From Terriglobia bacterium (GTDB taxonomy: Bacteria > Acidobacteriota > Terriglobia > 20CM-2-55-15): DNA of 64,000 nucleotides. The notes below the pieces were generated by a model, which ran no database searches, was not told the DNA's origin, and saw nothing but the letters and a program-made list of their open reading frames with translations. The DNA is taken from assembly GCA_963664115.2 (NCBI GenBank), contig CAXWPJ010000009.1, forward strand, positions 640,001-704,000, in the 5' to 3' direction. Shown here one piece after another: positions 45,106 to 64,000 of the stretch; position 1 is the stretch's first letter, and the number at the start of each line of letters is the position of its first letter. The translations under genes were made by a program, and so were the position numbers.

Positions 45106-45136
45106 CTCTCTAACGACAGGTTAATCGGAGACTTTC

Positions 45137-46669: not shown

Positions 46670-46698
46670 AAGCAAGGCGATTTCAAAACAGTAACAAC

Positions 46699-48684
46699 AT
46701 GTTCGACAAGATCTTGATAGCAAACCGAGGCGAAATCGCCTGCCGGGTCATAAAGACTGCACGGCGCATGGGTATCCGCACAGTGGCGATTTACTCCGAC
46801 GCCGACAACGACGCGCTGCACCGACGCATGGCGGATGAAGCTGTTCGCGTCGGCGGCGCGCCCGCAGCCGAGAGCTATCTGGTGCTGGATAACATCCTCG
46901 AAGCCGCAAAGAAAACCGGTGCGCAGGCGGTGCATCCCGGCTACGGATTTCTTTCGGAGAATCCAGCCTTTGCGGAAGCTCTTGCAGGCACCGGAATCAC
47001 CTTCATTGGTCCGGGCATCAAAGCGATCACATGCATGGGCGACAAGATCACGTCCAAAAGACTCGCTACAGAGGCAGGAGTGAACACGATTCCCGGGTTT
47101 ACCGACACAATCGAGAGTCCCAACCATGCCGTTGAGGTCGCGCGTGAGATCGGCTACCCCGTCATGCTCAAAGCCAGCGCCGGAGGCGGCGGGAAAGGCA
47201 TGCGCGTTGTCACCAGCGACGAGGAAGCGCGTGATGGTTTCGAACGGGCGAGGAACGAGGCTCAGGCGAGCTTCGGCGACGGCCGCATCTTTGCCGAAAA
47301 ATTTATAGAAGATCCGCGACATATCGAAATCCAGGTCCTCGCCGATACGCACGGCAACACAATCCACCTGGGCGAACGCGAATGTTCCATTCAGCGGCGC
47401 CACCAGAAAGTCATCGAAGAGGCCCCGTCGCCGTTTCTGAACAAGACGACGCGCGAGGCTATGGGGAAACAGGCGGTGGCCCTGGCTAAAGCGGTCGATT
47501 ACTGTTCCGCGGGGACGGTCGAATTCATCGTCGACGCGAAGCGTAACTTCTACTTCCTCGAGATGAATACTCGCTTGCAAGTCGAACACCCCGTAACCGA
47601 GTTGGTGACCGGCCTGGACCTTGTGGAACAGATGATTCGTATAGCTGCAGGTGAAGAACTGGGGATCAGACAAAAAGACGTGGCGCTTAAGGGCTGGGCG
47701 ATCGAAAGCCGCGTTTATGCGGAAGATCCGTTTCGCAACTTCATGCCGTCCACGGGCCGGCTGGTACGATACCAGGCGCCGGCTGAAACCGAAGGCACAC
47801 GCGTTGACACCGGGATCGAAGAAGGCGGCGAAGTTTCGATCTTCTACGATCCGATGATTGCCAAAGTCATTACTTACGGCATTGATCGGTCACAGGCCTT
47901 ATCACGTATGGGTGACGCTTTGGACGCCTATTACATTCGCGGTGTATCCCACAACATCGGCTTCCTGAACGCACTGATTTCCCATCCGAGGTTTATCAAG
48001 GGAAAGCTGAGTACGAGTTTCATCGCGGACGAATACCCGGATGGGTTTCACGCAAGCGATGTTCCGCATGACGATCCAGGACTTCCTATAGCCGTAGCTG
48101 CTGCAATTCACCAGAAGCATATGATCCGGGGAGCGCAGTTGACAGGCCAGTTGCCCAGTCACGAACGCCAGGTCGATGAGAAATGGACGGTCATCATCGA
48201 TCAGGAACACTGGCCGGTCACGGTAACGTCAGTCGAAACCGGCTTCGAAATCCTCAACGGCACGAGCACTTACCAAGTGACGACCGAATGGAAAATCGGC
48301 GAACCCTTGTTCCGAGCCGAAGTGAACGGGCAAACCGTCTGTGTACAGGTCGACGAAAACGGCGCAGCCTACCGCTTGTCCCACCGGGGTTCACAGGTCG
48401 ATGCCCTGGTAATTACTCAAAAAGCGGCTGAGCTGAACCGTCACATGATTCCAAAGCAACCACCGGATCTGTCCAAATTCCTGTTATCGCCTATGCCGGG
48501 GTTGTTGATCCATCTTCCGGTGAAAGCTGGAGACGAAATCAAGGCTGGTGAGGAACTGGCGGTCGTCGAGGCGATGAAAATGGAGAACAGCCTGAGAGCG
48601 TCTGAAGACGTCGTCATCGCGAAGACGCTCGCTGCCAAAGGCGATAGCCTCGTCGTCGACCAAGCGATCGTGGAATTCGAATAG
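46699..48684 (+). CDS. pccA: Propionyl-CoA carboxylase alpha subunit (biotin carboxylase plus biotinyl domain)
   Basis: ANRGEIA, HPGYGFLSEN, GGGGKGMR, RECSIQRR, EAMKM biotinylation motif. Confidence 0.94.
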   Translation: MFDKILIANRGEIACRVIKTARRMGIRTVAIYSDADNDALHRRMADEAVRVGGAPAAESYLVLDNILEAAKKTGAQAVHPGYGFLSENPAFAEALAGTGITFIGPGIKAITCMGDKITSKRLATEAGVNTIPGFTDTIESPNHAVEVAREIGYPVMLKASAGGGGKGMRVVTSDEEARDGFERARNEAQASFGDGRIFAEKFIEDPRHIEIQVLADTHGNTIHLGERECSIQRRHQKVIEEAPSPFLNKTTREAMGKQAVALAKAVDYCSAGTVEFIVDAKRNFYFLEMNTRLQVEHPVTELVTGLDLVEQMIRIAAGEELGIRQKDVALKGWAIESRVYAEDPFRNFMPSTGRLVRYQAPAETEGTRVDTGIEEGGEVSIFYDPMIAKVITYGIDRSQALSRMGDALDAYYIRGVSHNIGFLNALISHPRFIKGKLSTSFIADEYPDGFHASDVPHDDPGLPIAVAAAIHQKHMIRGAQLTGQLPSHERQVDEKWTVIIDQEHWPVTVTSVETGFEILNGTSTYQVTTEWKIGEPLFRAEVNGQTVCVQVDENGAAYRLSHRGSQVDALVITQKAAELNRHMIPKQPPDLSKFLLSPMPGLLIHLPVKAGDEIKAGEELAVVEAMKMENSLRASEDVVIAKTLAAKGDSLVVDQAIVEFE

Positions 48685-48690
48685 CGCGGC

Positions 48691-49689
48691 ATGTCGTCAC
48701 AGGATGCCAAAGAGCTCGCTTCGACCGTACTCGGGGGAGATCGCCGAGCGCTTGCCCAGGCCATCACGCTGATCGAGTCGACCCGCCTTGATGACCGTCA
48801 AGCGGCTCAGGTGCTCCTTGAAAAACTCGTTCCACGAGCAGGTCAGTCCCTTCGAATCGGAATTTCCGGTGTTCCGGGTGTCGGAAAATCCACGTTCATC
48901 GAAAGCCTCGGAAATTTCCTGATCGACGAGGGTCACAAAGTTGCCGTGCTCGCTGTGGACCCCTCTTCGGCAATAAGCGGCGGTTCGATACTCGGCGACA
49001 AGACGCGTATGGAGCATCTATCCAAGCGTCCGGAGGCGTTTATTCGCCCATCTCCTTCGGGAACAAAACTCGGCGGCGTGACCCGCCGCACCCGTGAAAC
49101 GATGTTGGTGGTTGAAGCCGCCGGGTTCGACGTATTGCTGGTCGAAACTGTCGGGGTCGGGCAATCTGAAACCTCTGTCTCGGAAATGACCGATATGTTC
49201 ATCCTGATGCTGTTGCCTGGTGGAGGTGATGAACTGCAAGGAATCAAGCGGGGCATCGTCGAACTCGCAGACCTGATCCTGGTCAACAAGGCCGATGGAA
49301 ACCTGTTACCTGTGGCCCAACGTTCGGTCGCCGACTATCGGAACGCGTTGCATTTGCTGCACCCGCGCAGCGCGCACTGGGAGGTTCCGGTTGAGGGCTA
49401 CTCGGCCCTCGAAGGCTCCGACACTTCCCGAGTGTGGGACATCGTCGAGCGATACCGGACGACGCTGTCAGACGCGGGCGAAATCGAACAGAAACGTGCG
49501 GACCAGGCAAGGGCATGGATGTGGAGCGAAGTTACAGACGCGCTCGTTGATGAACTTAAAGACGACCCTGATGTTAAGGCGCAGGTCAGCCAACTCGAGG
49601 AAGAAGTGACAAACGGTAAAACGTTGCCGACGGTTGCGGCGCAGGAATTGATCACTGCGTTCCTGAAACGCCAGATTGGAGGATCATGA
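48691..49689 (+). CDS. meaB: MeaB/ArgK GTPase (paralogue 2)
   Basis: GVPGVGKST, GGSILGDKTRM, ETVGVGQSE, NKAD. Confidence 0.94.
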   Translation: MSSQDAKELASTVLGGDRRALAQAITLIESTRLDDRQAAQVLLEKLVPRAGQSLRIGISGVPGVGKSTFIESLGNFLIDEGHKVAVLAVDPSSAISGGSILGDKTRMEHLSKRPEAFIRPSPSGTKLGGVTRRTRETMLVVEAAGFDVLLVETVGVGQSETSVSEMTDMFILMLLPGGGDELQGIKRGIVELADLILVNKADGNLLPVAQRSVADYRNALHLLHPRSAHWEVPVEGYSALEGSDTSRVWDIVERYRTTLSDAGEIEQKRADQARAWMWSEVTDALVDELKDDPDVKAQVSQLEEEVTNGKTLPTVAAQELITAFLKRQIGGS

Positions 49690-50090
49690 TCGGAAGGCTC
49701 AATCATGTCGCAATAGCGGTTCCGGATATCAACCAAGCGGTCGCCGTTTATGAGGGGCTATTGGGGGCCACGGTGTCGCCACCGGTCCGGCTCCCCGAGC
49801 ACGGTGTGACGACGGTCTTCGTTGAACTGCCAAACACCAAAATAGAATTGCTACATCCGCTGGGTGAAGGCTCACCGATAGAACGGTTTCTCGAACGCAA
49901 CCCTGCTGGCGGAATGCATCACGTTTGCTACGAAGTGGGAGACATTACCGTCGCCCGTGACAAGCTGACCGCGGAGGGCGCCAGGGTCCTGGGCAACGGT
50001 GAACCAACTATGGGTGCCCACGGAAAGCCGGTACTGTTTCTCCATCCTAAAGACTTCTGTGGAACCCTGATCGAGCTCGAGCAGGTCTGA
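49686..50090 (+). CDS. mce: Methylmalonyl-CoA epimerase
   Basis: LNHVAIAV, EHGV, GG.HH.C.EV, FLHPK, ELEQ; ATGA overlap with meaB. Confidence 0.95.
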   Translation: MIGRLNHVAIAVPDINQAVAVYEGLLGATVSPPVRLPEHGVTTVFVELPNTKIELLHPLGEGSPIERFLERNPAGGMHHVCYEVGDITVARDKLTAEGARVLGNGEPTMGAHGKPVLFLHPKDFCGTLIELEQV

Positions 50091-50128: not shown

Positions 50129-51259
50129 CTATCCGAAAACGTAAAGGACGCCGTCCGTCGAGCCGATCACGACTCGGCCGCTGGCGATCGCTGGAGACGC
50201 CGTCAGATCCGCGCCCGTGTTGAACTCCCACAGCTTCGATCCCGTGGCGGCGTCGAGCACATACAGTCGACCATCACTGGAACCGATGTACACGCGACCG
50301 CCCGCGATTGCGGGGGAGGAATCGACTCGCGCACGTGTCTCGAAGGTCCACAAAGATTGGCCCGTAGCCGCGTCGATCGCATGCACGAACTTATCCCGTC
50401 CGCCAAGAATAATGCGGCCCTGGGCCAATGCTGCGGAAGAGTAGTAGGGAAACTCTCTGTTCGGATTCCTGTAACGCCAGACAACTCCGCGACCAGTCAA
50501 ATCGAGCGCGAGCACTTCATGCTCGAAGGTCCCGAAATACGCGCGATCGCCGCCTATCAAGGGTGAAGCCGCCGTATACGCACCGGCGACGATCTGGTAG
50601 GCCTCGGTCCCATCTGCAACACGCACGGCACGAAAGATTCCATCGCACCCCGCTATAAAGGCCAGCCCGTCGGCGACCGCGGGTGTCGCGTGCACCATGT
50701 TGTCGGTCTGAATTTTCCAACGGAGGCTGCCGTCATTTGCGTCGAGGGCATACAAATGGGTGTCGTAGGAGCCGATAAGCACGAGATCGTCCACGACTAC
50801 AGGTGACGATTTGATCTCCCCATCGGTTGTAAAGGCCCACACCCGCTTGCCGTCGCCAAGGTTCACCGCGTGAACAATTCCGTCGAGATCACCGACGTAG
50901 ACGGTGTCTTGACCGACCGCCGGGGAAGACTCCATGATGAAACTCCCAGTGGAGTATGCCCACTTGAGTTCTCCAGAATCCAGGTCGAGAGCAAGAAGGT
51001 CACCGTTGCCGACGCCAACGTAAACAACACCGTCCGCGACCGCGGCTGATGAATCGATCGCGTCACCCGTTTCATAGCTCCACAACAGTTCCAAACTGCT
51101 GGGAGGGTTCGTGGCCGCGACACCTGTAAGGGAGGGGTTGCCCCGGAATTGATTCCAATCGCTACTCCGAGTTCCGGGCTGCGTCTGAGCGGACGCAAAC
51201 GTTGTCACGCTCGCGAGGAGCAGAAGAACGGGCAGCTTCAACATCACGCCGGACATCAT
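50129..51259 (-). CDS. Exported PQQ-like (BamB-type) beta-propeller protein
   Basis: Signal peptide, W.QFRG, repeated SSP.../ALD...G...W blades; start uncertain (51244 or 51259). Confidence 0.85.
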
Positions 51260-51281
51260 GGACTTTATAGCGTTACCTCGA

Positions 51282-52745
51282 TTACTCGACCGACAGCGCA
51301 AACAGCTGGTTGCGGTTGTTCATGAACAACGCGCCGTTCGCCGGGACGACCGTCGAATACACGGCACTCCCCATATTCATTTCAGCAAGCACAGTCTCGT
51401 TCCGTCCGTGGGCGAGGACGACAACGTCGCCATCCTCGTCTCCGATATAGACCTTGTCGTCAACGACGAATGCTGAGCCCCAAACCGATGCAAACGTATC
51501 GTGAACCCAAAAGGGCTCTCCGGTGGTCGCATCGAGACAATGCACAAAGCCGCTGAAGTCCGCGATGTAGACCAAACCATCAGTGACAGCAGCCGTGGAA
51601 ACGGAACGGCGGATGTCCTCGTAATGCCAGATTACACCGCTTTCTGTGATGTCGCCTCGCCCCGTAGCATCGAGAGCGTAAAAATGCCCGACACCTTCCC
51701 CGTGCTCGGGGTCCTGCCCGTTAGCGATGTATACACGGTTCTCATACACCACCGGCGTTGAAATGACTTCATTGCGCGTTCGAGGCCACACCGAGTCCTT
51801 GGGATTCGTGTCAAACTCCCAGAGCTTTTCACCGGTCTGGGCCACGTATCCGCGCACCCACCCGTCACCCTGGGCTGAAACCACCTGGACGACACCATCG
51901 ACCTCACCTACAGCCGGGGTAGACCACTGTCCGTGCAGAATCCGATCCTCGACGGAGTTATCTTCCCAGACCCACTCCCCCGTGTCTTTGTTGATCGCCA
52001 CAATCGACGGTGCAAACGGAGATGGAACGTTGACATGACTCTCATCGTGACCGTTGGATGTGCTGACGAATATCAGATCGCCCCACATGACTGGAGACGA
52101 ATTCGACAAGTTATGGGGGTAGGCACCGACCTCTTCCAACATGTCGAACTCCCAAAGGACATCGGCATCGAATTCTCCAGTGCGTCCCTCATCAGTGATC
52201 GCACCGTCGTTTTCGCCGTCCCGGAAACCCTGGATGTCCAGCGCGGTAACAACTCCACGATTCGTCGTGTAAAAGAGGCGATCATCCACAACGAGAGGTG
52301 AGGAGGCCACGCCTTGAAACGGCCAGTCGTTTACCCGTCCCGCCTCCAGCTTCATGGTCGTCTGCTGCCAGAGGAACTCGCCGTCGGACTCTCGAAACGC
52401 CATCAGTACACCGCGATCCCCTGGTTGCTCCGGATCACGCAGTAATTCGTTGTTGGTACCCACGAACACCATGCCTCCGGAAACAACCGGATTGCCATAG
52501 CTCTGCGAACCCAGATCGGCCACCCATTTAACATTCCTTCCGGTTTCCACGTCCCAGTCGCCCGGCAGTCCAGTCATTTCCGACACCATGTTGCGGTCCG
52601 CAGTTCCACCCCACATAGGCCAGTCACCGTTTCCGGGTTCTCCCGACTGTGTTGGCGCCGACGCGCTCTCAAGGGCGAAACCCAAAGCGATGATGAGAAT
52701 TGCAATAGGCCTTGAGTTCTTCCAAAAGCGCCTGTATCCGTTCAT
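51282..52745 (-). CDS. Exported PQQ-like beta-propeller protein with acidic insertions
   Basis: Signal peptide, DWPMWGG...RNM, repeated Trp-docking blades, [11 protein letters not shown] loop. Confidence 0.85.
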
Positions 52746-52762
52746 GAGCTCTGCCTTTCTTA

Positions 52763-54985
52763 CTAGTTGGCCGTTAACAAGAAGTTATCCAGATACGCCC
52801 CGAATTCGGCATCCAGAAACAGCCCCGGTGCACCCTCGCGATTCCCGATCGGGTCGACGTGGTCGATGAGCCATTCCGCCGGTTCCACATCACCGACCTG
52901 CCACGCTTTGCCCTGCACGCGGACCTGGCCGTCAGGCAGGTTTTCCACGCGCACCTTCATCCGATACCACATGTCCGGTTCCCAGCTGAATGGAATTGTC
53001 ACTGAGCGTTCGATTTCTGGCTCCCAGGGCTCAAGCTTCAGCTTCTGCGTGGTGCCATACAGAACAAGGGAATAAGTTTGGGCCGTGATTCCGACGTCGG
53101 CCATTTGGCGGCGGCGCGTCGGTGCCCTAACGTCGGCCTGAAACGTGTAGTCGGACCAGTCCGTAGGTCCGAAAAACATTCGGGCCCGTCCGAAGATCGT
53201 ATTGTCGGGAGGTTTTTCAAAGACCCGGTTCCCGTCGAGCGTCGAGACCGTAAACCGGCCCGCTTGCGCGTTGATCCATCCAGGTGGCAGCTCACCATCC
53301 ATATAGGCTTCGAACCCTTCCTCATAGGGGAACGGATGAACTACTCTGGCCCTGGATTCTCCTGTGAGTCCACCCACCGTCGCACGGATTACGCCGGCCT
53401 GTAACTGAGGCTCATTCGAAACAGTGAAGCTTCCGTCGTTACCCAGTGTTCCCTCCAGACCATCGAGTGCCCACTGAGCATCGGCCTCGCGGAGGAAACG
53501 CCCCTGGCCGTCAAACAGCCGCGCCCGAAGCTGGACAGTTTCCCCAGGTTCGAGCACCATCTCTGTGGGCACGACCTGGACGTGGGTGGGAGCGCCTTCG
53601 CCCCCGGCGATGACGTCGTCGACAGCCCATCCGTCGAGCGAGGACGCAACGCGCGAGCCAATGGCGTAAACGGCATCACTGGTAACGAAGAAAACACGGC
53701 CCCGTGAAACGGCAGCTCCCGCGACGACCTGCTCCGCGGTACCCTCGGAACTGCAACAACTGTCCGTACTCACCGGCAGCTCGACTCGACTCAGAACCTC
53801 GGCACTCGACTCTCCAGGCCGAACGATATAGAATGCGCCGCCGTTGGTCCCCACATAGATCTTGCCGTCAGCTAACACAGGTGCGGCCCGCTGGGCATTG
53901 CCGAGTGGCAGCGACCACAGCTCTTCGCCGGTTTCGGTGTCATACGCCACCAACGTCGATCCGCTGTCGATCTGATAGAGCCGGTCCCCGTCGATGACCG
54001 GGGACGCGTAACCCAACTCCCGTCCCTTCACGTTCCAGATCGTCTCTGTAATCTCTCCACTACGGCCCCCGGCGATGGCTGCGATCATGCCCAACTCGTT
54101 ACCTTCGAGGTTTTCATCGCCGTGAGAGATAAAGACAACGTCGTCCTTGACGACGACACCCGTGTTCACTGCCCGCCGCGCTGCGGGAAAGCTCCACACC
54201 ACCTCACCGGTCTGGGGCTTGATGGCATGAATACCTCCATTCCCAAGTCCCTGAATCAGCAGTCGCTGGCCGTCAATGGTCGCAATCGTCGCCGGCGCAT
54301 ATGCCGTGTCGAACGGCCGACCGCCGGGAGCAGTGACGTAAACGATCTCCCCAGTCCGTTTGTCGAGCCCCACCAGCCTATGGGCCCGATTCCAGTTCGA
54401 TCCCCAGCTGGATATCGCGGCGGATACGATCACCAGATCGCCATCGATCAGTGGGGAAGATGTCCGGCCACCGTGCGTCGTAAACGCCGCCCACTCCTCG
54501 GCAAACGATCGCTGCCAGAGAAGCTCACCGTCCGGGGTCAAAGCAACCACCATTGCGTTCCCGCTCATCGCGTAGATGTTTCCGGTTTCGGGGTCTGCAG
54601 CAGGGGAGGCCCAGCCTACCCGGTGCGGAGGGACATCGCTCTGGAATATATTGAACCGGTAGTCCCAAATCACCTCTCCGGTATCCGCGTCGAGCGCCAT
54701 CACCCGTTCCTGAAGCTCGGGCCCTCGCTCGGCAGGGTTTTGAACGTAGACGCGATTGCCCATAACGATCGGCGTCGAGCGGCCACCGTAGGGAGCGCGC
54801 CAGAGGAAGTTCGTCCCGTTCAGCTCCCATGTTTCCGGAAGGCCCGTCTCCAGCGACGAGCCGTCCCTGTGGGGACCGCGAATCTCCGGCCAATCACCCA
54901 AGGCAACCCGGCCAGGATCCTGCCCGGCTGCGATCACGACCACATTCAGCAGCAGAGTCAAAAGTAGAGCTGGTTTTCTCAACAT
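52763..54985 (-). CDS. Exported PQQ-like beta-propeller with probable Ig-like and C-terminal beta-sandwich domains
   Basis: Signal peptide, DWP..RGP..DG, repeated blades, 'V.P.E.VL.PGE' Ig-like segment, C-terminal DY...ADV / WY.MK / DNF pattern. Confidence 0.82.
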   Translation of the reverse strand: MLRKPALLLTLLLNVVVIAAGQDPGRVALGDWPEIRGPHRDGSSLETGLPETWELNGTNFLWRAPYGGRSTPIVMGNRVYVQNPAERGPELQERVMALDADTGEVIWDYRFNIFQSDVPPHRVGWASPAADPETGNIYAMSGNAMVVALTPDGELLWQRSFAEEWAAFTTHGGRTSSPLIDGDLVIVSAAISSWGSNWNRAHRLVGLDKRTGEIVYVTAPGGRPFDTAYAPATIATIDGQRLLIQGLGNGGIHAIKPQTGEVVWSFPAARRAVNTGVVVKDDVVFISHGDENLEGNELGMIAAIAGGRSGEITETIWNVKGRELGYASPVIDGDRLYQIDSGSTLVAYDTETGEELWSLPLGNAQRAAPVLADGKIYVGTNGGAFYIVRPGESSAEVLSRVELPVSTDSCCSSEGTAEQVVAGAAVSRGRVFFVTSDAVYAIGSRVASSLDGWAVDDVIAGGEGAPTHVQVVPTEMVLEPGETVQLRARLFDGQGRFLREADAQWALDGLEGTLGNDGSFTVSNEPQLQAGVIRATVGGLTGESRARVVHPFPYEEGFEAYMDGELPPGWINAQAGRFTVSTLDGNRVFEKPPDNTIFGRARMFFGPTDWSDYTFQADVRAPTRRRQMADVGITAQTYSLVLYGTTQKLKLEPWEPEIERSVTIPFSWEPDMWYRMKVRVENLPDGQVRVQGKAWQVGDVEPAEWLIDHVDPIGNREGAPGLFLDAEFGAYLDNFLLTAN

Positions 54986-55109
54986 AAGGAAATGTCCTTC
55001 GATAAATTCCTCTATGAAGAAACTACTGGCCTGGTAAGGTTGATTAAGAAATATATCGTAGGCAATTGGGGACGGGGCGAATTTCTATAAAAAAATCGTC
55101 TTCCTCCCC

Positions 55110-56357
55110 TTAAGGCCCCCCGCGAATATTGTACGCGGTGACCGTTCCCTGGTCCCGGACATAGAGGGTGCCGTCACTTACGACGGGATGGGCCCGGCTC
55201 GGGAAACCCTGGTCGGGCATCTCGAATCGTCCCTTCTCCGTGTAACCGGTCGGCGCCGCTTCAACCAGGCCTACGACATTGTTCTCGCTCAAGATGTAGA
55301 GATGGCCGTCCGCATAAACGAGGGATCCCTTGCCCACGCTGCGGTCTCGCCACATCCTTTCTCCAGTCGCAAAATCGAGACATGTAAGAATGGAGTTGTT
55401 GAACCCGTAGAGATATCCATCAACCACGACGACACCTCCGTGATGGTTCCTCATGTCCCGCGTGAAATAAAGTTCCTCGGCGGCGACCTCTCCCCCTTGG
55501 CTTCTCAGCTCCAACAACCCCCCGCCGGTGCCGTAAGCCGAAGTATAGAAAACCTTATTGTCATAAAAGACCGGAGTGGCGACGTTGGCGGTCCTATTCG
55601 CCGCCCCCGTGTATTTCCACATCAATCCGCCGTCTCGCGCCCGGAGACCCACGCCCGCCTCGTCGGTCAGCGTCATTACCGTCCGGACGCCGTCGATCTC
55701 GGCAACGATGGCTGAAGCGTAGCCAGCCCTGTCACTGAGTCCTTCGCTGGCCCATATGGTTTCCCCGGTCCGTTTGTCCAAAGCCACAACCGCCGCGTCT
55801 CGACCACCCGGCGACACGATCACCATGTTGCCATCAACGAGAGGCGATTCGCTGATCAGCCAATCGATATTTCGTCCGCCGAACTCCTGGAGGATGTTGA
55901 GTTGCCAAACGATTGAACCGTCACCGGCTTCGAGGCAGACCAAGTCCCCGTTCTCGGTCAGAACATAGAGCCGGCCATCGTCAATGGTCGGTGTGCCTCG
56001 AGGCCCGGGGCCTTCTCTATTTCTACGACCCTCACCGAGGGCCCGGGACCAGATCAGGCGCCCATTGCTGCGGTCCAGGCTGGCGACAGCACTCTGCTGC
56101 CCAACCAACATCTGAAGATAGATGCGCTCACCGGCAACAGCCAGCGATCCGTATCCCGCACCGAGACCCAAGGTTTGCCACAAGCGGTTCGGGCCCGACG
56201 CCGGCCACTCGCTCAGCAAGCCAGATTCTTCTGAGACTCCGTCACGGTTTGGACCGCGCCACTGGGGCCAATCTGTAACCGTCTCAGTTTGCCCCCCAAC
56301 GAGGTCAGTCGTTGCGAGAAACAGCGCAACGCTCATGAGGCACAGGCGCACTATCAT
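55110..56357 (-). CDS. Exported PQQ-like beta-propeller protein
   Basis: Signal peptide, DWPQWRGPNRDG, repeated blades, C-terminal HPVV..G.LY.RDQ. Confidence 0.88.
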   Translation of the reverse strand: MIVRLCLMSVALFLATTDLVGGQTETVTDWPQWRGPNRDGVSEESGLLSEWPASGPNRLWQTLGLGAGYGSLAVAGERIYLQMLVGQQSAVASLDRSNGRLIWSRALGEGRRNREGPGPRGTPTIDDGRLYVLTENGDLVCLEAGDGSIVWQLNILQEFGGRNIDWLISESPLVDGNMVIVSPGGRDAAVVALDKRTGETIWASEGLSDRAGYASAIVAEIDGVRTVMTLTDEAGVGLRARDGGLMWKYTGAANRTANVATPVFYDNKVFYTSAYGTGGGLLELRSQGGEVAAEELYFTRDMRNHHGGVVVVDGYLYGFNNSILTCLDFATGERMWRDRSVGKGSLVYADGHLYILSENNVVGLVEAAPTGYTEKGRFEMPDQGFPSRAHPVVSDGTLYVRDQGTVTAYNIRGGP

Positions 56358-56401
56358 CGCCGTACTCCGATATCCGATTGATTTTCCAATTTGCGCACTG
56401 T

Positions 56402-56676
56402 TAGCAGCCCGTAGCAGGAGTCTCGAGGGCCGCGCGCAGGGGTCTTCGGGTTGCGGGCGCGAAGTGAGGAGCGGAGCGATGTCTTTTCATCGTGACCGAC
56501 GAACGACAAAGCCTGCGGCCCGAACCCCCCTGTGCCCACAGGGTTACGGCGAAACGGGCCCGTCTTCGTTGTTGTCGACTCCTCCCAATGGATGAGCATT
56601 ATTTCGTCGTCGCCTCCTAGAATCCGGTCCCGTTTGGCCGTAACGCGGCCCTCGAGACTTCTGCTACGGGCTGCTA
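56402..56676. mobile_element. MITE-like non-autonomous element (~275 bp)
   Basis: 33-bp terminal inverted repeats TAGCAGCCCGTAGCAG(G/A)AGTCTCGAGGGCCGCG with one mismatch; TTAG/CTAG at the ends; nested internal hairpins; no credible ORF. Confidence 0.8.
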
Positions 56677-56743
56677 GCCATCCAGCCGCGAGACAGTTAA
56701 CATATTATGAACCACGATGACACTTTCGGCGGGGGCCTTCAAC

Positions 56744-59700
56744 ATGAATTCAAAGCTTGCCTTCGGACTGGCGTTGACCCTGTGGGTAGCGAGCCCTGCG
56801 CTTGCGCAATCCTACAGAGCCTCGATTCGCGGGATCGTCGTCGATCCGTCCGGGGCCGCCGTTCCCGAGACTAGGTTAGAGATCACGAATGAAGCGACTG
56901 GAGACACACGTATCGCAACTACGGGACCGGATGGGCGCTTTGCCATATCGACGCTGCTTCCGGGCGACATTCTAATCGAAGCGGAACAGGACGGTTACGC
57001 CAGGTACGTATCCCGCACAAGGCTCCGGGTTCGTCAAGAGTTGTGGCTCAACGTGACACTGAGCCTGGGTAACGTGAGTGAAGAAATTATAGTTACGGCA
57101 CCGGCCGTGGTGATCGATCAGGAATCGGCTGCTCTCGGCACTGTGATCGATGATCGGCAGATAACGGGTCTTCCCCTGGACGGGCGCAACTTCCTGGAGC
57201 TATCCTTGCTCGCACCGGGTGTCGCACCCGCTCCGGAGGGCTCGGCCAGCTCTCTTCGCGGCGATTTCGCCTTTACGGTAAACGGCGCACGTGAAGATGC
57301 TCAGAGCTTCCTGCTCGACGGTGTCTATAACATCGATCCCAAACTGAATACACCCGGCGTCCGTCCACCGGTGGACGCAATCCGCGAATTCGAGGTATTG
57401 ACAGGAACTTACAACGCTTCGTTTGGACGCAACGCTGCCGGCCAGATCAACGTCGTCACGCGCTCAGGTGAAAACGAACTCCACGGAACGATTTACGGTT
57501 TCCTCCGGACACGTTCGCTCAATTCGCGCAACTACTTTGCACCCGAGAACGAGGCGGAGCCGGATTACAACAGGAGACAGTACGGCGGATCGATCGGCGG
57601 CCCGATCGTTGCCAACCGTACATTCTTCTTCGCTGACTACGAGCACACCCGACTGAGGGAAGGTGTCACACGGGTTACGAACGTGCCGACGCTGGCTGAA
57701 CGCAACGGTGACTTTTCACAGAGTCTGCTTCCAGCGCCAGTCAACCCTTTTAGCGGTCAGCCGTTTTCGGATAACAGCATTCCGAGCTTTTTCATCCACC
57801 CCGTCGGAAGTGCGATTGCCGCTCTCTATCCCGAGCCCAACCGCGCTGAACCTTTTGCGAACTTCGTGTCTTCGCCGATGCTCTCCGACGACGTCGACCA
57901 TTTTGACCTGAGGATCGATCACAACTTCTCTGGAGGCTCCCGGTTCATGACGCGTTACAGCTTCAACGATCGGCGCTTTTTTGAACCGTTCGCATCGGGC
58001 GTCAGCGTCCCGGGATATGGCACCGATGTTCCGCGACGCGGTCAGAATCTGGCCATCGGCGTCACCCAACCCTTCGGCGGAAGCATGGTCCATGACATTC
58101 GCGTCGGATACACACGAGTCTCAATTGGTGTCTTTCATGAGAACCAGGGACGTAGCGTCAATCAGGAAGTGGGTCTGCCCGATCTGTCGCCGAACCCGCG
58201 CGATTTCGGGCTGAGTCAGATCACGGTAACGGGCTTTTCGCCGCTGGGAGACGAATTCACAAGCCCCCAGCAAAGTACAACGGACATGTGGCAACTGATT
58301 GACACCGTGAACTGGGCGCAGGGCCCGCACTTGGTCACTGCCGGATTCGACATTCGGCATGTCCGACAGGAGGCCTATCGCGACGTCCAGTCGCGCGGTT
58401 TCCTGAACTTCTCGGACCGATATGTCACTGGCAATGGACTGGCCGATCTCTTGCTCGGCTTTCCTCTCGTTACGGGGGGCGCCATTCTGGATAATCCCCA
58501 ACGCCTCCGGTCTTCAGGATGGAGCGCCTTTGCGCAGGACGGTTGGAGATTGCGAGACGATCTGACGCTGACGGCTGGACTTCGCTACGAGTACATAGGG
58601 CCGGGGGTGGATGCCGACGACAGGGCAAATCTATACGATCCTGCAACTGGAGGGTTCGTACAGGTGGGTACTGGCGATATGCCACGCGGCGGTTACGAAC
58701 CGGACCGCAACAACTGGGGCCCGCGGCTCGGACTGGCCTGGACGCCGGACGCTGCCAGAAGGACCGTCATTCGTGGCGGTTACGGAATTTATTACAACCA
58801 GGGTGCTTTGGCCACGGGCGAAGGCCTCTACTTCAATGCTCCTTATTTTGATTTGAAGCTTTTCGTTCCCGCACCTGGCATTCCGCCGGTGACGCTCCAG
58901 GATCCCTTTCCTCAGTCGTACCCGCTCGAACTTCCCGCGTCAGCCACAGCCTATCAGCGAGACCTCCAGACAGGCCGGCTCGAACAATGGAGCATAGGGG
59001 TGCAACGGCAACTGGGTGAGGCCCGAACAATCGAGGTGGCATACGTGGGATCACGAGGCCGTCATCTGATCGCCGCGCGTGACCTCAACCAACCCGATCC
59101 GAGTCCGGTCCCACTGAACCTCAGGCCGAATCCGCTTTTGGCAGACATCACGCTGATCGAGTCTCGCGGTAAATCCAAGTACCACGCCCTCCAAATCAAG
59201 TTCCAGCAGCGTTCCGCCCGAGGTCTCTCCGTGCTCGCAGCTTACACCTATGGTAAATCCCAGGATGACGCCTCCGGATTCTTCGCCAGCACAGGCGACT
59301 CCAATTTCCCGCAGGACAGCCGGAATCCTGAGTTGGAATACGCGCGTTCCAGCTTCGACGTCAGACACCGGTTTTCAACGAGTTTAGCTTGGGAGATGCC
59401 GTTCGGGACCGGTCAACGTTGGCTGACGGACAATGGCGTGCTTTCGACTGTGTTGGCTGACTGGGAACTGCAGGGCATCGTGACACTGCAGAGCGGCCGC
59501 CCGTTTACGGTGGCACTGCTGCCCGAATTCGACAACAGCAATACCGGGTTCTCCACACTGGGTTTCGGTGCGAACGACCGGCCGAACCTTGTCGGCAATC
59601 CCGTCCTGGACAATCCGACACCCGAGCAGTGGTTCAACGTTGGGGCTTTTACGGTGCCGGATTTCGGGAGCTTTGGCGATGCCGGCCGGAACATCCTGGA

Positions 59701-59914
59701 AGGACCCGATTTTCAGAACGTGAACCTGTCGTTATCAAAGACAATATCTGTTGGAGAAGGGGTGGATCTTCAGCTTCGGGCGGAAGCGTTCAACTTATTC
59801 AACCGCTCAAACTTCAATCTGCCTGACGCTTTCGTGGGCTCGCCAACGTTTGGACAAGTCGTTTCTACCGAGAACCCGAGACGATGCCAGTTCGGCGTCA
59901 AGTTGATCTTTTAG
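56744..59914 (+). CDS. TonB-dependent receptor, Oar-like, with N-terminal carboxypeptidase-regulatory-like domain
   Basis: Signal peptide, G.V.DPSGA.VP, LPL.GRNF..L, AI.EF.V.T, F.QD.W, G.RYEY, C-terminal ...KLIF. Confidence 0.92.
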   Translation: MNSKLAFGLALTLWVASPALAQSYRASIRGIVVDPSGAAVPETRLEITNEATGDTRIATTGPDGRFAISTLLPGDILIEAEQDGYARYVSRTRLRVRQELWLNVTLSLGNVSEEIIVTAPAVVIDQESAALGTVIDDRQITGLPLDGRNFLELSLLAPGVAPAPEGSASSLRGDFAFTVNGAREDAQSFLLDGVYNIDPKLNTPGVRPPVDAIREFEVLTGTYNASFGRNAAGQINVVTRSGENELHGTIYGFLRTRSLNSRNYFAPENEAEPDYNRRQYGGSIGGPIVANRTFFFADYEHTRLREGVTRVTNVPTLAERNGDFSQSLLPAPVNPFSGQPFSDNSIPSFFIHPVGSAIAALYPEPNRAEPFANFVSSPMLSDDVDHFDLRIDHNFSGGSRFMTRYSFNDRRFFEPFASGVSVPGYGTDVPRRGQNLAIGVTQPFGGSMVHDIRVGYTRVSIGVFHENQGRSVNQEVGLPDLSPNPRDFGLSQITVTGFSPLGDEFTSPQQSTTDMWQLIDTVNWAQGPHLVTAGFDIRHVRQEAYRDVQSRGFLNFSDRYVTGNGLADLLLGFPLVTGGAILDNPQRLRSSGWSAFAQDGWRLRDDLTLTAGLRYEYIGPGVDADDRANLYDPATGGFVQVGTGDMPRGGYEPDRNNWGPRLGLAWTPDAARRTVIRGGYGIYYNQGALATGEGLYFNAPYFDLKLFVPAPGIPPVTLQDPFPQSYPLELPASATAYQRDLQTGRLEQWSIGVQRQLGEARTIEVAYVGSRGRHLIAARDLNQPDPSPVPLNLRPNPLLADITLIESRGKSKYHALQIKFQQRSARGLSVLAAYTYGKSQDDASGFFASTGDSNFPQDSRNPELEYARSSFDVRHRFSTSLAWEMPFGTGQRWLTDNGVLSTVLADWELQGIVTLQSGRPFTVALLPEFDNSNTGFSTLGFGANDRPNLVGNPVLDNPTPEQWFNVGAFTVPDFGSFGDAGRNILEGPDFQNVNLSLSKTISVGEGVDLQLRAEAFNLFNRSNFNLPDAFVGSPTFGQVVSTENPRRCQFGVKLIF

Positions 59915-60059
59915 GGCACTGTCAACTGGGGGTCCCAACGTCGATCCTGTGCCGGATCGGCTCAAGTTGACAGCAACCACTGTCCGACTATACTGCCTCA
60001 AGGCCTCTAATTTTTTCCTATCCGCCGTAACAGAGAGCGGCACCAGAGAAAGGAAAGAC

Positions 60060-60536
60060 ATGGCATTTGACGCTCAAATGCAACGGCAGATCATGGGACG
60101 GTTCGCGACGGGTGTGACGGTGGTGACCACCCGGTATGGCGATGGAGAAAACACGGGGATGACGGCCAATGCGGTGATGTCGCTTTCTCTGGATCCGCCG
60201 CTGGTTGTGATCTCGGTGGATAAGAAAGCGCTGATTCATGGATGTTTGAGCGATGGGCAATGCTACGCGATCAACATCCTGACCCGCGATCAGGAAGATT
60301 TATCGACACGTTTCGCCACATCGGGACCGAAAGATCTGTCGGGCCTGGAGTGGACTGAATCCCAGACTGGGGCTCCGATTCTTAAGGACACGCTGGGATA
60401 CCTGGACTGCAAGTTGACAGATATCCTGCCGGCAGGGGATCACGATATGTTTGTCGGTGAGGTTGTCGCAGGCGATCTGGGTGAGGGGCTGCCCCTGCTC
60501 TTTTATAGCGGGAAATATCGGAAGCTTGGGGAATAA
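60060..60536 (+). CDS. Flavin reductase (HpaC/RutF-like)
   Basis: FATGVTVVT, GMTAN..SLSLDPPL, GDH, PL.FY.G.Y. Confidence 0.92.
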   Translation: MAFDAQMQRQIMGRFATGVTVVTTRYGDGENTGMTANAVMSLSLDPPLVVISVDKKALIHGCLSDGQCYAINILTRDQEDLSTRFATSGPKDLSGLEWTESQTGAPILKDTLGYLDCKLTDILPAGDHDMFVGEVVAGDLGEGLPLLFYSGKYRKLGE

Positions 60537-60854
60537 GAAGACCTGCTGAGTCTGTTTCGATCAGTCAGGCACAGACCAATATCGGCCCATCAAGGCTTCT
60601 GCGATCACCTTGTTTTGCGACTTGAGAAACGATCATGGCGGGTTGATTGATCGCGCCATCCCCAAGCTTAAGCCCACAATGACATTCCGATTCTGGACCT
60701 TTGCATGGGATCCACGTGCCTAATTGGCAGTAGTGGCGGTATAAACGATCAGAATAGGGCCCGATGACTGGCTGCCAGCAAGGGGTAAGGACGGACTCGA
60801 TGCCCTCGCAACGGGCATTCCGGCCATTAAACAATTCGCTATACTGTTTCAGCC

Positions 60855-61970
60855 ATGCAAGCCGCTGATTCCGGAAATAGAGAAGCATCGCCCTCTCGAG
60901 TGGAAGCAGCCCGCACTGATCTCGATGCCTGGGTACGTGAAGTTGTCGCCTGGCACTTCGATCCAGCGACCGGTTGTCCGTTCTGGCTGGAGCGGGCGGC
61001 GGAACTTGGCTGGGATCCGGTGAGGGAAATCCAGGGTTTCAGCGATCTGCGCCGCTTTGGTCCGTTTGATGACGAATGGTTGCGAGGCGGCCCTGTAAGA
61101 CGTTGGGTACCGCGCGGCCTCTCCGATAAACCCGTATTTGTCTTCGAAACGGGCGGCACGACCGGTATTCCTAAGACACGCATAAACTGCGAGGACTTTC
61201 GGACGGACTACGACATATTCAGCGAAACGCTTCCGGAAGAGTCCTTCCCGAAAGGGGCAAACTGGCTCATGGTCGGCCCCTCAGGTCCCCGTCGGCTGCG
61301 ACTGGCGGTCGAACACCTGGCCCAATATCGCGGCGGCATCTGCTTTCTTGTGGATCTGGATCCTCGATGGGTGATCAAGCTCATCAAGAAAGGGTGGACA
61401 GAGCACTTGAATGAGTACAAGAACCATGTGATCGACCAGGCCGTAACCATCCTCCGTGCGAACCACGACATCCGCTGTCTTTTCACTACACCGAAACTGC
61501 TTGAAGCCCTGGCCCTGCGCCTGGAAACGATGGACACGACGATTCGCAGAGAAGGCATCACGGGTGTTTTCTCGGGAGGCACCGAATTCACACCACAGTG
61601 GAATCGCTTTGCGCACGAGGAACTGCTCGACGGAGCGTATATGACCCCGACCTATGGCAATACGCTGATGGGCCTCGCCCCAAGTGCTCCGAGCGGACCA
61701 CACAACGGCTACAAGATCGCATACTACGCACCACAACCCCGTGCCGTCATTGAGGTCGTGGACCTGGATGATGAAGAACGTGTCGTGGAATATGGCGAAA
61801 CCGGGCGAGTCAGAGTAACGACGCTGACGAAGGAATTCTTCATGCCCGGTTTCCTTGAACGCGACGAAGGTGAGCGCGAGCCCCCCTGCGATCTCTACAC
61901 CTGGGACGGGGTGAGCGGTGTGCGGCCGTTTCGTGAGCTTGCTGCGGCGACCACTGTGGGCGTCTATTGA
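60855..61970 (+). CDS. AMP-binding-like protein, EhpF/GriC/LuxE-like
   Basis: WHF.P.TG.PFW, P-loop ETGGTTG.PK, YGNT, V.YGE.G.V, ERD; short (371 aa), apparently lacking the C-terminal ANL subdomain. Confidence 0.75.
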   Translation: MQAADSGNREASPSRVEAARTDLDAWVREVVAWHFDPATGCPFWLERAAELGWDPVREIQGFSDLRRFGPFDDEWLRGGPVRRWVPRGLSDKPVFVFETGGTTGIPKTRINCEDFRTDYDIFSETLPEESFPKGANWLMVGPSGPRRLRLAVEHLAQYRGGICFLVDLDPRWVIKLIKKGWTEHLNEYKNHVIDQAVTILRANHDIRCLFTTPKLLEALALRLETMDTTIRREGITGVFSGGTEFTPQWNRFAHEELLDGAYMTPTYGNTLMGLAPSAPSGPHNGYKIAYYAPQPRAVIEVVDLDDEERVVEYGETGRVRVTTLTKEFFMPGFLERDEGEREPPCDLYTWDGVSGVRPFRELAAATTVGVY

Positions 61971-61972
61971 GA

Positions 61973-63400
61973 ATGATTACCCTTCCTGTCTTACGCTGGG
62001 GTCAACCCTACGAAAGCCTTGATCTGGACGAAGTCGTTCATTTCTCGACGGGTGAACCGGTCGCCAGGGTCGGTCGTGCCAACAGTGGACTGATCCAGAG
62101 GGACATGCGCAAGGCTCAAAACGCCCGCGACGCTTTACGTGCGATTCCAGTCGACGAGTTACTGAAAAGAGTCCAACGTGCCGGTGAGATTTACATGACC
62201 GCTACAGTTCCGATGGGAGACGGAGCGCAAACCCCCGAAGAATTCGTCCGGGCCCAGTCGGCCAGCACCGGCTTGCCCGAACAGATGTGCCGGACCAACA
62301 TGGAAAAGAACCGATTCGTGCTTTCAGAGATGCCTAACATCCTCGCATCGCTGACGCGCGGCCTGGATCTGGAGGTCCTCAACCAGGGATTCGGCGAGGA
62401 ACATGAGGTGCCGATCAGCTTTCAGGCCCAAAGCCCTGTGCTGGGCGTGGTGCTGCCGTCCAACTCCCCCGGCGTACACACCTTGTGGTTACCCATCATT
62501 GCCTTGCAGATCGGTCTTGTCCTCAAGCCTGGACCTCAGGAACCCTGGACGCCGTATCGAATGGTCAATGCATTCTTCGAAGCCGGAATTCCTCGGGAAG
62601 CCTTTTCAATTTACCCCGGTGAAGCCGACATTGGCGCGGCCGTGCTCGATGCTTCAAGCCGCAGCCTCATATTCGGCGGCGAGGCCACGGTTGAGCGTTA
62701 TCGGGGCAACCCCGGAGTCCAGGCTCACGGACCGGGATTATCGAAGATTATTTTCGGTGACGACCAGGTGGACAATTGGGAGAAACACCTGGACCTGATG
62801 GTGGAGAGTGTCGCGGTCAACAGCGGCCGCAGCTGTATCAACGCCTCAGGGATTTGGGTCAGTCGACATGCCCGAGAGATCGCGGACGCCCTGGCCAGCC
62901 GACTGGCCCGGATACGCCCGCGACCCCCGGAAGATCCGGAATCCACTTTGGCGGCGTTCACCGTCACCGGTGTGGCCGAAGCCATTTCGCAATCGATCGA
63001 CGCCGACATACAGGCTCCTGGCGTCCACGATGTCACTGCAAACTTTCGGAATGGGAGCCGACTGGTAGACGTCGGACTCGCCGACTATCTGCTGCCGACA
63101 GTGATCCATTCCGAGTCACCGGAGAACGGGATCGCGAAAAAGGAGTACATGTTCCCGTTTGTCTGCGTCGTCGAATGCCCGGAAGCGGAGATGATTCGAG
63201 CGATCGGACCCACATTGGTTTGCAGTGCGATCACTTGCGACGAAGACTTCCGGCGTCGCCTGGTCGACGCCGTGAATATCGACCGGCTGAATCTGGGTCC
63301 GGTCCCGACGACGAAACTCAACTGGCTCCAGCCTCACGAAGGGAACATCGTCGAGTTTCTATTTCGCGCACGCGCATTTCAGAACGCGCCGTTCACCTAA
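61973..63400 (+). CDS. Aldehyde-dehydrogenase-fold protein, GriD/LuxC-like acyl reductase
   Basis: PSNSPG, LKPG..EP, FGG, catalytic Cys in NSGRSCIN, EYMFPF; HGPGLSK replaces the ELGGK general-base motif. Confidence 0.78.
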   Translation: MITLPVLRWGQPYESLDLDEVVHFSTGEPVARVGRANSGLIQRDMRKAQNARDALRAIPVDELLKRVQRAGEIYMTATVPMGDGAQTPEEFVRAQSASTGLPEQMCRTNMEKNRFVLSEMPNILASLTRGLDLEVLNQGFGEEHEVPISFQAQSPVLGVVLPSNSPGVHTLWLPIIALQIGLVLKPGPQEPWTPYRMVNAFFEAGIPREAFSIYPGEADIGAAVLDASSRSLIFGGEATVERYRGNPGVQAHGPGLSKIIFGDDQVDNWEKHLDLMVESVAVNSGRSCINASGIWVSRHAREIADALASRLARIRPRPPEDPESTLAAFTVTGVAEAISQSIDADIQAPGVHDVTANFRNGSRLVDVGLADYLLPTVIHSESPENGIAKKEYMFPFVCVVECPEAEMIRAIGPTLVCSAITCDEDFRRRLVDAVNIDRLNLGPVPTTKLNWLQPHEGNIVEFLFRARAFQNAPFT

Positions 63401-63429
63401 TAGCAGTCGTCCGGGGAGGGCCGAAGTGA

Positions 63430-64000
63430 ATGCGGGTCTTGTCAATCACCGCCGGAGCGGCTGGGATGTACTGCGGGAGTTGCGCCCGCGACAATGCGCT
63501 GGCACGGGAACTGTTGTCTCTCGGTCACGACTGCATGCTCGTGCCCGTCTACACACCCACACGAACAGACGAACCTAACGCGAGCCGCCCACACGTCCTG
63601 TTTGGCGGTATCAGCGTGTATCTTCAGCAATATGTCCCGCTTTTTCGCAGGACCCCCCGATTTTTGGATCGGCTGTGGGACTCCCCGTGGGTAATCGATC
63701 GTGTCGCGGGCCGCGCGGTGTCGAACGATCCCCAGTTATTGGGTGACCTCACGATCTCCATGCTCGAGGGCGAAGAGAGCGTCTTAGGAAAGGAATTCGA
63801 AAAACTCGTAGACTGGATCCGCCACCAACCCACACCGGATATCATCAACCTCCCCAACTCCCTGCTGATCGCGCTCGCAAAACCGCTGCGCGAGAGTTTC
63901 GATCGACCGGTTTGCTGCACACTGCAGGGAGAAGAACTCTTCATTGACGGCCTGCTGCCCCCCTATCGCGAACAGGCATTGAATCTCATCCGGCGGCAGA
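63430..64000 (+). CDS. GT-B (family 4-like) glycosyltransferase, truncated by the window end; absent from the ORF track
   Basis: Read manually: MRVLSITAGAAGMYCGSCARDNALARELLSLGHD..., open to 64000. Confidence 0.75.
   Translation, partial: MRVLSITAGAAGMYCGSCARDNALARELLSLGHDCMLVPVYTPTRTDEPNASRPHVLFGGISVYLQQYVPLFRRTPRFLDRLWDSPWVIDRVAGRAVSNDPQLLGDLTISMLEGEESVLGKEFEKLVDWIRHQPTPDIINLPNSLLIALAKPLRESFDRPVCCTLQGEELFIDGLLPPYREQALNLIRRQ

Follow-up and report, generated by a model that had tools for sequence, protein, structure and literature searches.

The closest described relatives of the system reported here are EhpF/EhpG of the Pantoea ehp phenazine cluster (PMC3175449) and GriC/GriD of the grixazone pathway of Streptomyces griseus, in both of which a short ANL-type adenylating protein is encoded adjacent to a protein of the aldehyde dehydrogenase (ALDH) fold. 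For GriC/GriD (a likeness set by description and not by sequence comparison) the route is given in PMC10179220 as aryl acid to acyl-AMP to aldehyde. A pair of the same arrangement is encoded in a 64,000-nucleotide (nt) stretch of a Terriglobia bacterium genome (G000:C9:640001-704000; hereafter the window, the numbering of which is continued for positions past 64,000), together with putatively exported beta-propellers of the pyrroloquinoline quinone (PQQ) type, a glycosyltransferase of family 4 (GT4) and, past the window, an ATP-binding cassette (ABC) transporter. It has in common with EhpF/EhpG the GPG motif in place of ELGG, but forms a separate clade, is tied to the GT4, the ABC transporter and the propellers, and is replaceable by an Fe-S chain. 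In its logic only, the system also resembles mycofactocin (radical S-adenosylmethionine (SAM) enzyme, glycosyltransferase, separate regeneration and strict co-occurrence of dependent enzymes, according to bioRxiv 10.1101/2024.03.26.586840), from which it differs in that its users are predicted to be exported propellers, in that an exporter and importers belong to it, and in that its radical SAM enzyme is HemN-like and its glycosyltransferase of family 4; no precursor peptide or mft gene was seen among the recurrent neighbours (no genome-wide search was made). The system is real and widespread, and apparently undescribed: no published description was found in the literature (in which subscription journals were poorly covered), and a 2025 review of planctomycete metabolites (PMC12078418) never mentions PQQ, propeller, halogenase or chorismate. 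Its novelty lies in the whole; the enzyme pair by itself belongs to a known kind, of which it is a new clade.

The linkage of the pair, the GT4 and the ABC transporter is far above chance: within 81 EhpF-like loci (80 fetched plus that of the window, many ending at contig edges) an ALDH-fold gene is present in 77, the ABC ATPase in 62, the GT4 in 61 and the permease in 58. Genome-wide profiles were taken in 201 Acidobacteriota (this genome included) and 121 Planctomycetota (322 genomes), with propeller P5 of the locus as probe for the propeller family. P5-type propellers are found in 59 Acidobacteriota and EhpF-like proteins in 57, of which 55 belong to the main clade (main-clade counts omit G025, G186 and 12 planctomycete EhpF homologs of 33-42% identity). 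The co-occurrence of propellers and pair, on which the original prediction had been staked beforehand, held in this phylum: all main-clade genomes (55/55) are among the 59 propeller carriers, and 142 genomes have neither. The GT4 occurs in 58 genomes (all among the 59) and the permease in 58 (57 of them among the 59); the pattern is nested, with a radical SAM enzyme in 46 genomes (all within the 55) and a halogenase-like protein in 44 (all within the 46), and presence varies inside families (4/12 in f30 and 1/4 in f29, for EhpF-like protein, propeller, GT4 and permease alike). Among Planctomycetota, the main clade is found in 25 genomes and propellers in 31 (21 with both, 10 propeller-only), and the GT4 in 33, i.e. 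in 25/25 main-clade genomes, 8/10 propeller-only genomes and 0/86 others. Four EhpF-positive planctomycetes gave no P5 match (15 candidates scored); three of them have propellers in their loci, the fourth being G322. The system is carried by 59 of the 201 Acidobacteriota and about 35 of the 121 Planctomycetota sampled and, as had been suspected at the outset, similar gene sets do exist in both phyla, with pair, GT4, ABC transporter and propellers sharing operons in each.

The nine genes from which the cluster was originally recognised (four propellers, a receptor, a flavin reductase, the pair spaced by 2 bp and a glycosyltransferase) are all present, and the expectation that it continues past the window was borne out by the rest of the GT4 (773 nt beyond the edge), by a type VII ABC exporter (in the downstream check for transporters) and by a fifth propeller. 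The features are:

50129-51301, minus strand: propeller P4, 390 amino acids (aa), PQQ_2 match above cut-off
51282-52745, minus strand: propeller P3, 487 aa, PQQ_2 match above cut-off
52763-54985, minus strand: propeller P2, 740 aa, PQQ_2 match above cut-off
55110-56357, minus strand: propeller P1, 415 aa, PQQ_2 match above cut-off
56717-59914, plus strand: TonB-dependent receptor (OMP_b-brl_4, E 5e-237)
60060-60536, plus strand: HpaC-like flavin reductase, with its own sigma-70 promoter at 59967-59994
60840-60845, plus strand: TATACT -10 element, 9 nt before the ATG of the EhpF-like gene (leaderless-type start)
60855-61970, plus strand: EhpF/GriC-like adenylating protein (module A; PDB 3l2k, EhpF, E 3.6e-45)
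61973-63400, plus strand: EhpG/GriD-like ALDH-fold reductase (module A), in which the catalytic Cys is retained and another residue stands for the general-base Glu
63430-64000, plus strand: 5' part of the GT4 gene, which ends at 64773 (C9:704773); N-terminal C15-x-x-C18
64827-65513 (C9:704827-705513), past the window: LolD-like ABC ATPase
65564-68938 (C9:705564-708938), past the window: duplicated FtsX/MacB type VII permease, 1124 aa
68940-70310 (C9:708940-710310), past the window: propeller P5

The fixed core of the system is formed by the GT4, the type VII ABC transporter and the propellers, and not by the reductase pair (module A). Five propeller-positive, EhpF-negative genomes gave no ALDH match (0/5), with P3 found in 4/5. 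In genomes of this type, a second gene set (module B) shares a gene cluster with GT4, ABC transporter and propellers; it comprises NuoEF, a NuoG-N/GltD-like flavoprotein, a NapH-like membrane protein, a 4Fe-4S ferredoxin with an RR (twin-arginine) signal, an NHL protein and propellers anchored in the membrane. By hydropathy, the anchored propeller follows two or three helices and the fused NuoEF one or two, which would place the former in the periplasm and the latter in the cytoplasm; at L181:2614-5460 and L144:15041-17977 (G197, G186) the propeller-anchoring membrane hairpin appears fused to NuoEF. Module B shares with NapGH/MauMN and NuoEF-GltD the NapH-like polyferredoxin, the RR-signal ferredoxin and the NuoE/F and GltD-like domains, and differs from them in having no nitrate or methylamine enzyme, in its linkage to propellers, GT4 and ABC transporter, and in its NapH score (48 vs a cut-off of 213). 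Searched for through its ferredoxin in 160 of the 322 genomes, it was found in 3/59 Acidobacteriota carriers (G086, G186 and G197, i.e. three of the four without a main-clade pair; controls 0/21) and in 9/10 propeller-only and 4/25 pair-positive planctomycetes (controls 0/45), and thereby in 0/66 control genomes; the genome of the window is without it. When genomes are grouped by GT4 (which avoids defining the groups by either module), a hand tally of the 91 GT4-positive genomes of the two phyla gives 76 with the pair only, 11 with the chain only, 4 with both and 0 with neither. Since 11 genomes without a main-clade pair still have the GT4, together with the Fe-S chain, the pair is a replaceable module. 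Hence, of the initial proposal that an aromatic acid is activated, reduced and glycosylated, the reductive pair and (as likely) the aromatic acid are retained, while these 11 pair-less genomes speak against the linear chain. Furthermore, COX1 (heme-copper oxidase) was found in 0/10 chain-only genomes (10 of the 12 were tested, all draft assemblies) vs 5/5 pair genomes (hand-picked, 5 of 80).

Judged from its motifs, the pair looks like a two-component aryl-carboxylate reductase of the EhpF/EhpG-GriC/GriD kind, operating in the reductive direction, in agreement with the kinship first proposed for it. The EhpF-like protein (371 aa vs 366 aa, short like EhpF) aligns with 3l2k across residues 20-360 and conserves the motifs ETGGxTGxPK (P-loop) and ERD. 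Its almost constant neighbour keeps the nucleophile motif NxGRxC in 100/104 sequences and has lost the hydrolytic Glu, HGPG standing at the ELGG position of hydrolytic ALDHs in 103/104 and an ELGG-type motif in 0/104 (the Pantoea protein at the EhpG position has QGPG there). Absence of the ELGG Glu is a sign of acylating or reductive ALDHs. Identity to the pair of the Pantoea plasmid is 31.9% and 24.8%; phenazine/aminohydroxybenzoate-type core genes adjoin those plasmid homologs, and none (phz, griH/griI) was met among the recurrent neighbour families of the present loci, as had been remarked for the window (no genome-wide search was made). The pair is mostly single copy and is 53-87% conserved over the two phyla. 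In a quick tree, the main EhpF-like clade (41 rows) lies on one side of a branch with a Shimodaira-Hasegawa-like approximate likelihood ratio test (SH-aLRT) value of 100, and Acidobacteriota and Planctomycetota interleave within it. A second EhpF clade (33-42% identity) stands in an MMPL/U32/aminotransferase context and its genomes have no P5-type match (0/13). The EhpF-like protein is represented by 8000 or more clusters at the 90% identity level, and those listed bear no functional name beyond 'PaaK-like'.

Some further records concern these clades. The second-clade loci L099 and L117-L121 (G025, G305, G230, G320, G266, G248) have no ALDH partner, and their neighbours, by eye, are MMPL, SCP2-like/NAD-binding reductase, U32, class III aminotransferase and a CxxCH protein. 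Main-clade proteins P0156, P0186 and P0197 come, by their names, from Armatimonadota and from a bin of Chloroherpetonaceae, so that the system likely extends past the two profiled phyla. The records L017, L023, L070 and L022, titled Bifidobacteriaceae or Acidimicrobiia, carry EhpF-like genes 72-82% identical, as in Acidobacteriota, and are likely mislabelled.

The recurrent gene set (read from 40 diverse loci and 20 more) contains P2, P3, P4, further propellers, the GT4 (with a conserved N-terminal CGxC) and the ABC transporter, together with an iron-dependent alcohol dehydrogenase (Fe-ADH), a HemN-like radical SAM enzyme, a PaaK-like ligase, a flavin halogenase-like protein, a chorismate-lyase-like protein, a 4HBT thioesterase, a small membrane protein, the TonB receptor and, as importers, SSS with DUF3311, MFS or TAXI-TRAP. 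The ABC transporter shows the type VII features (two FtsX domains, a MacB periplasmic domain and a LolD-like ATPase) and scores below the LolD/LolCE equivalog cut-offs. In the genome of the window (97% complete) no ortholog of Fe-ADH, radical SAM enzyme, lyase, PaaK-like ligase or halogenase was found. Because the fuller copies add the chorismate-lyase-like protein, the PaaK-like ligase, the CndH-like halogenase and the thioesterase, the substrate of the pair is likely to be an aromatic acid. The chorismate-lyase-like protein has a weak match to 2nwi (E 0.018), none in Pfam or NCBIfam, and what we take to be a motif likeness to UbiC. The halogenase-like protein of other carriers matches CndH (E 5e-58), has GxGxxG and WxWxIP and an aligned Lys (presumably the catalytic one), is nearest to CndH, ChlB4 and PltA, and matches QhpG-type monooxygenases more weakly; these features point to a flavin-dependent halogenase of the carrier-tethered type. 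A comparable neighbourhood, with a chorismate-lyase-like gene beside a flavin halogenase, is that of baaAB (3,5-dibromo-p-anisic acid) in Planctomycetales strain 10988, for which bioRxiv 10.1101/723874 reports BaaB as ~44% similar to Bmp5. Identity with baaAB was set aside, as the enzyme of the system is CndH/ChlB4/PltA-like and BaaB Bmp5-like (compared by description).

In several genomes, the system genes adjoin a terpene module, in which GcvH-like, ferredoxin-like, DUF116-polyprenyl synthase, prenyltransferase toroid and class II cyclase (intact DxDD) genes are adjacent, and the GT4 acceptor may on that account be a lipid-like molecule. Lipid-like substrates suit type VII ABC transporters. 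The cyclase was found in 4/5 pair genomes, 2/5 chain-only genomes and 0/5 pair genomes without the radical SAM enzyme (in a search that had no positive control), and not in the genome of the window. The cyanobacterial merosterol pathway is said to combine a chorismate-derived aryl acid, a prenyl chain, a class II cyclase, a halogenase and carboxylate reduction; to our knowledge it has no GT4, type VII ABC transporter or propeller family. Orthologs of the TonB receptor (4 candidates scored per genome) occur in 16/201 Acidobacteriota, 16/16 of them among the 59 propeller carriers, often beside system genes, and in 8/13 carriers without the radical SAM enzyme vs 8/46 with it (Fisher p 0.003, overstated by kinship); the receptor likely imports a precursor, cofactor or substrate.

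The propellers P1-P4 are only 24-30% identical to each other (best local alignments). By hydropathy, the only hydrophobic stretch of each lies at the N-terminus, and no lipobox Cys was seen there by eye, which suggests that they are exported. The subfamilies are old orthologous groups, each with its own conserved loop motifs. P4 is a conserved ortholog that usually adjoins an Fe-ADH, radical SAM or GT4 gene; P3 has invariant polar loop motifs and an AlphaFold predicted local distance difference test (pLDDT) value of 87.6, its nearest solved folds being BamB and quinoprotein propellers (11-19% identity); P2 joins a propeller to a probable Ig-like domain (weak Pfam match, 2/22 orthologs) and a C-terminal ConA-like sandwich, which has no Pfam family and the best fold match of which is galactocerebrosidase (TMq 0.73, other matches being generic ConA/LamG sandwiches); and P1 belongs to an expanded WPxWRG paralog family. 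The fold is that of PQQ quinoproteins, BamB (COG1520) and TIGR04528, from which these proteins, routinely labelled BamB or PQQ-binding, differ in being shorter than PQQ dehydrogenases, in having no lipobox and in missing all curated NCBIfam cut-offs widely, with best scores of 112 vs 480 for the PQQ-dehydrogenase models TIGR03075/TIGR03074 and 73 vs 650 for TIGR04528 (acido-empty-quinoprotein group A). Searches of the ESM Atlas returned 'PQQ repeat' clusters only, the prediction of a P2-P3 complex (score 0.00) gave no answer and was used neither way, and metatranscriptome contigs gave short low-depth pieces only in runs X1-X3 (word share 0.05-0.07) and none in X10, from which we make no claim of expression. 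The propellers are scattered over the carrier genomes (up to 162 first-look candidates per genome), and this genome-wide spread means that the link to the system concerns the whole family and does not rest on synteny alone; they are not the merely local partners as which they were first seen.

The reading that we favour, at somewhat below even chances, is that of a periplasmic redox system whose reductant supplies, one aerobic and one anaerobic, can stand in for each other. Every GT4-positive genome examined has module A or module B. The role shared by the two modules may be the delivery of reducing power, and both would carry electrons of low potential from NAD(P)H in the cytoplasm to the periplasm. 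In anaerobes, module B would deliver the electrons by wire. In aerobes, module A, in which the pair is often accompanied by the Fe-ADH and a small-acid importer, would run a cycle of acid and aldehyde (a couple of low potential), and perhaps alcohol, at the cost of ATP: the acid would enter via SSS, MFS or TRAP carriers, the EhpF-like protein and its ALDH-fold partner would likely spend ATP and NAD(P)H in converting the aromatic acid to the aldehyde, the reduced form would leave, and its re-oxidation at the exported PQQ-like propellers would likely supply these with reducing power. The propellers themselves would be redox proteins using a glycosylated cofactor, of which the GT4 is the predicted maker and the ABC transporter the predicted exporter. 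The halogenase/radical SAM/lyase module and the polyprenyl/terpene-cyclase module could build the scaffold from scratch, and the genome of the window, in which neither scaffold module was found, may salvage it via the TonB receptor. In its most explicit form (to which we give distinctly less credence, regarding it as doubtful), aerobic Acidobacteria and Planctomycetes would replace a ferredoxin wire by an oxygen-proof shuttle of aromatic acid and aldehyde, driven by ATP, which would pass electrons of very low potential to a new class of periplasmic propeller enzymes; these enzymes would depend on an undiscovered meroterpenoid cofactor that is glycosylated, possibly halogenated, and traded between species.

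Several points weigh against the redox reading. Substrate, product and redox activity are all predicted. Across the 92 aligned P1/P5-type sequences there is no universally shared catalytic residue, the conserved motifs being mostly structural (W/G/SP), and the closest solved folds of P3 include the BamB scaffolds. Propellers occur in G094 and G215 without module A, module B or the GT4; in G281 the Fe-S chain is found, but no GT4 match; and four genomes carry both modules. The TonB ortholog is also present in the module B genomes G186 and G197, which means that the receptor's cargo cannot simply be equated with the acid of module A. Moreover, the search for module B covered part of the sample, the contrast in COX1 was obtained on draft and hand-picked genomes, and kin are not independent, so that Fisher values overstate. 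Finally, the complementarity of the modules would be accounted for just as well by A and B each carrying out a single biosynthetic reduction.

The main rival of the periplasmic redox reading, which we regard as possible, if clearly short of probable, is an extension of the original prediction in which the genes form a linear route to an exported glycoside or glycolipid. Chorismate would be converted to 4-hydroxybenzoate, which would be halogenated, methylated, possibly prenylated and cyclised, and which the pair and the Fe-ADH would reduce, a single time, to the alcohol (with module B as an anaerobic stand-in for the same reduction); the GT4 would glycosylate the product, the type VII ABC transporter would pull it from the membrane, and the propellers would carry, bind or process it. 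In line with this route, every enzyme type that it needs recurs in the fuller clusters, the lysine is retained where the halogenase-like protein aligns with CndH, polyprenyl synthase, toroid and DxDD cyclase are found in both A and B genomes, the C-terminal sandwich of P2 is most like galactocerebrosidase, and the nested loss fits the salvage of a precursor. It is less easily reconciled with module B, which has no recognisable carboxylate-reducing catalytic subunit and the ferredoxin and anchored propellers of which are predicted to face the periplasm, with the B-only genomes G086, G186 and G197, in which radical SAM enzyme and halogenase are lacking (for G281: the radical SAM enzyme) and three of which keep the GT4, and with the cyclase, which was not found in 1/5 A and 3/5 B genomes.

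A role in envelope biogenesis, in which the product is a modified membrane glycolipid and the propellers act as BamB-like scaffolds or lipid chaperones without catalysis, appears unlikely. It would explain that BamB gives the top fold matches of P3, that the ABC ATPase is nearest to LolD, and that in P. limnophila COG1520 paralogs of this kind bear the name bamB (PMC10632474; the Bam locus tags of that species were not matched by sequence to the propeller family). However, the BamB model TIGR03300 reaches a best score of 174 vs a cut-off of 285, again with no lipoprotein signal seen; PMC10632474 also reports only bamA as essential in P. limnophila, where the rest of the Bam genes are dispensable, absent or present in several copies; and a scaffold role leaves the need for module A or B unexplained. 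Less credible still is a catabolic cluster, in which imported aromatic alcohols or glycosides would be oxidised through aldehyde and acid to the CoA ester: importers (TonB, SSS, MFS, TRAP), Fe-ADH, ALDH, CoA ligase and thioesterase do typify degradation clusters, but the ALDH is without the hydrolytic Glu and lies nearly always beside an EhpF-type adenylase (a combination that is anabolic in annotated clusters), and it is lyase, halogenase, GT4 and exporter that recur, with no recurrent ring-cleavage genes. That the co-occurrence reflects shared ancestry and lifestyle and not function, as could be argued from families that are positive or negative as a whole and from profiles taken without phylogenetic correction, is hardly to be believed, given that the genes stand in common operons in both phyla, that presence covaries within families, that the two phyla interleave in the (quick) EhpF-like tree and that the sister EhpF clade, in its MMPL context, comes without a P5-type match in 13/13 genomes.

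Within the window itself, the operon of the pair likely starts at the EhpF-like gene, since a TATACT-like -10 element precedes this gene in 60/75 orthologs and is rare ahead of the downstream genes (6/73, 1/53 and 2/43); the ATG of the ALDH-fold gene (61973) lies 2 bp past the stop codon of the EhpF-like one. The flavin reductase, which the original prediction had counted in the cluster, is present in 1/81 loci (that of the window only) and is a bystander. Its start is probably 60060 and not 59949, because a TTGACA-16-TATACT promoter (an 11/12 match to the sigma-70 consensus, in promoter and terminator scans which taken overall were at chance level) sits at 59967-59994. As a member of the system or partner of a halogenase it was rejected, in view of this distribution, of its own promoter and of the best halogenase-like match of the genome (27%). 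Two FAD-oxidoreductase matches of this genome (G000 C2:587177-586149 and C6:365701-366729) have near-identical alignment statistics on different contigs, and represent either a recent duplication or an assembly repeat.

Past P5, a run of unrelated minus-strand open reading frames, cassette-like in look, occupies C9:710575-714391, followed by an integron integrase on the minus strand (C9:714590-715759, L194:4593-5759; TIGR02249 score 439 vs a cut-off of 265), ~10.6 kb past the window. This region sits between P5 and more system genes, namely a sixth propeller, the small membrane protein of the system and a TAXI-TRAP importer (C9:720554-725517, L194:10557-15514), which are probably the remainder of the cluster beyond an insertion. 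On the other side, an operon on the opposite strand (42871-50090) ends 38 bp from the stop of P4; we take it to encode methylmalonyl-CoA mutase, propionyl-CoA carboxylase subunits, MeaB and an epimerase, and presumably a second MeaB-like gene lies at 40075-41028. CofG (38862-40013, above cut-off) and an F420-dependent luciferase-like monooxygenase (LLM) family oxidoreductase (41560-42489) are encoded further off; the genome likely makes F420, and these two genes have no link to the propeller system in other loci.

The complementary pattern of the two modules translates into a testable claim, i.e. that the paralog family needs both a reductant supply and the product of the GT4 and the ABC transporter. 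Cultured carriers are available (Rubinisphaera margarita, Calycomorphotria hydatis, Stratiformator vulcanicus, Caulifigura coniformis and Polystyrenella longa), in which single-copy genes allow clean knock-outs. The halogenase module may moreover hint at a widespread bacterial source of organohalogens. If the reading of an oxygen-proof shuttle is true, it would give a function to a large orphan paralog family of abundant soil and marine bacteria.

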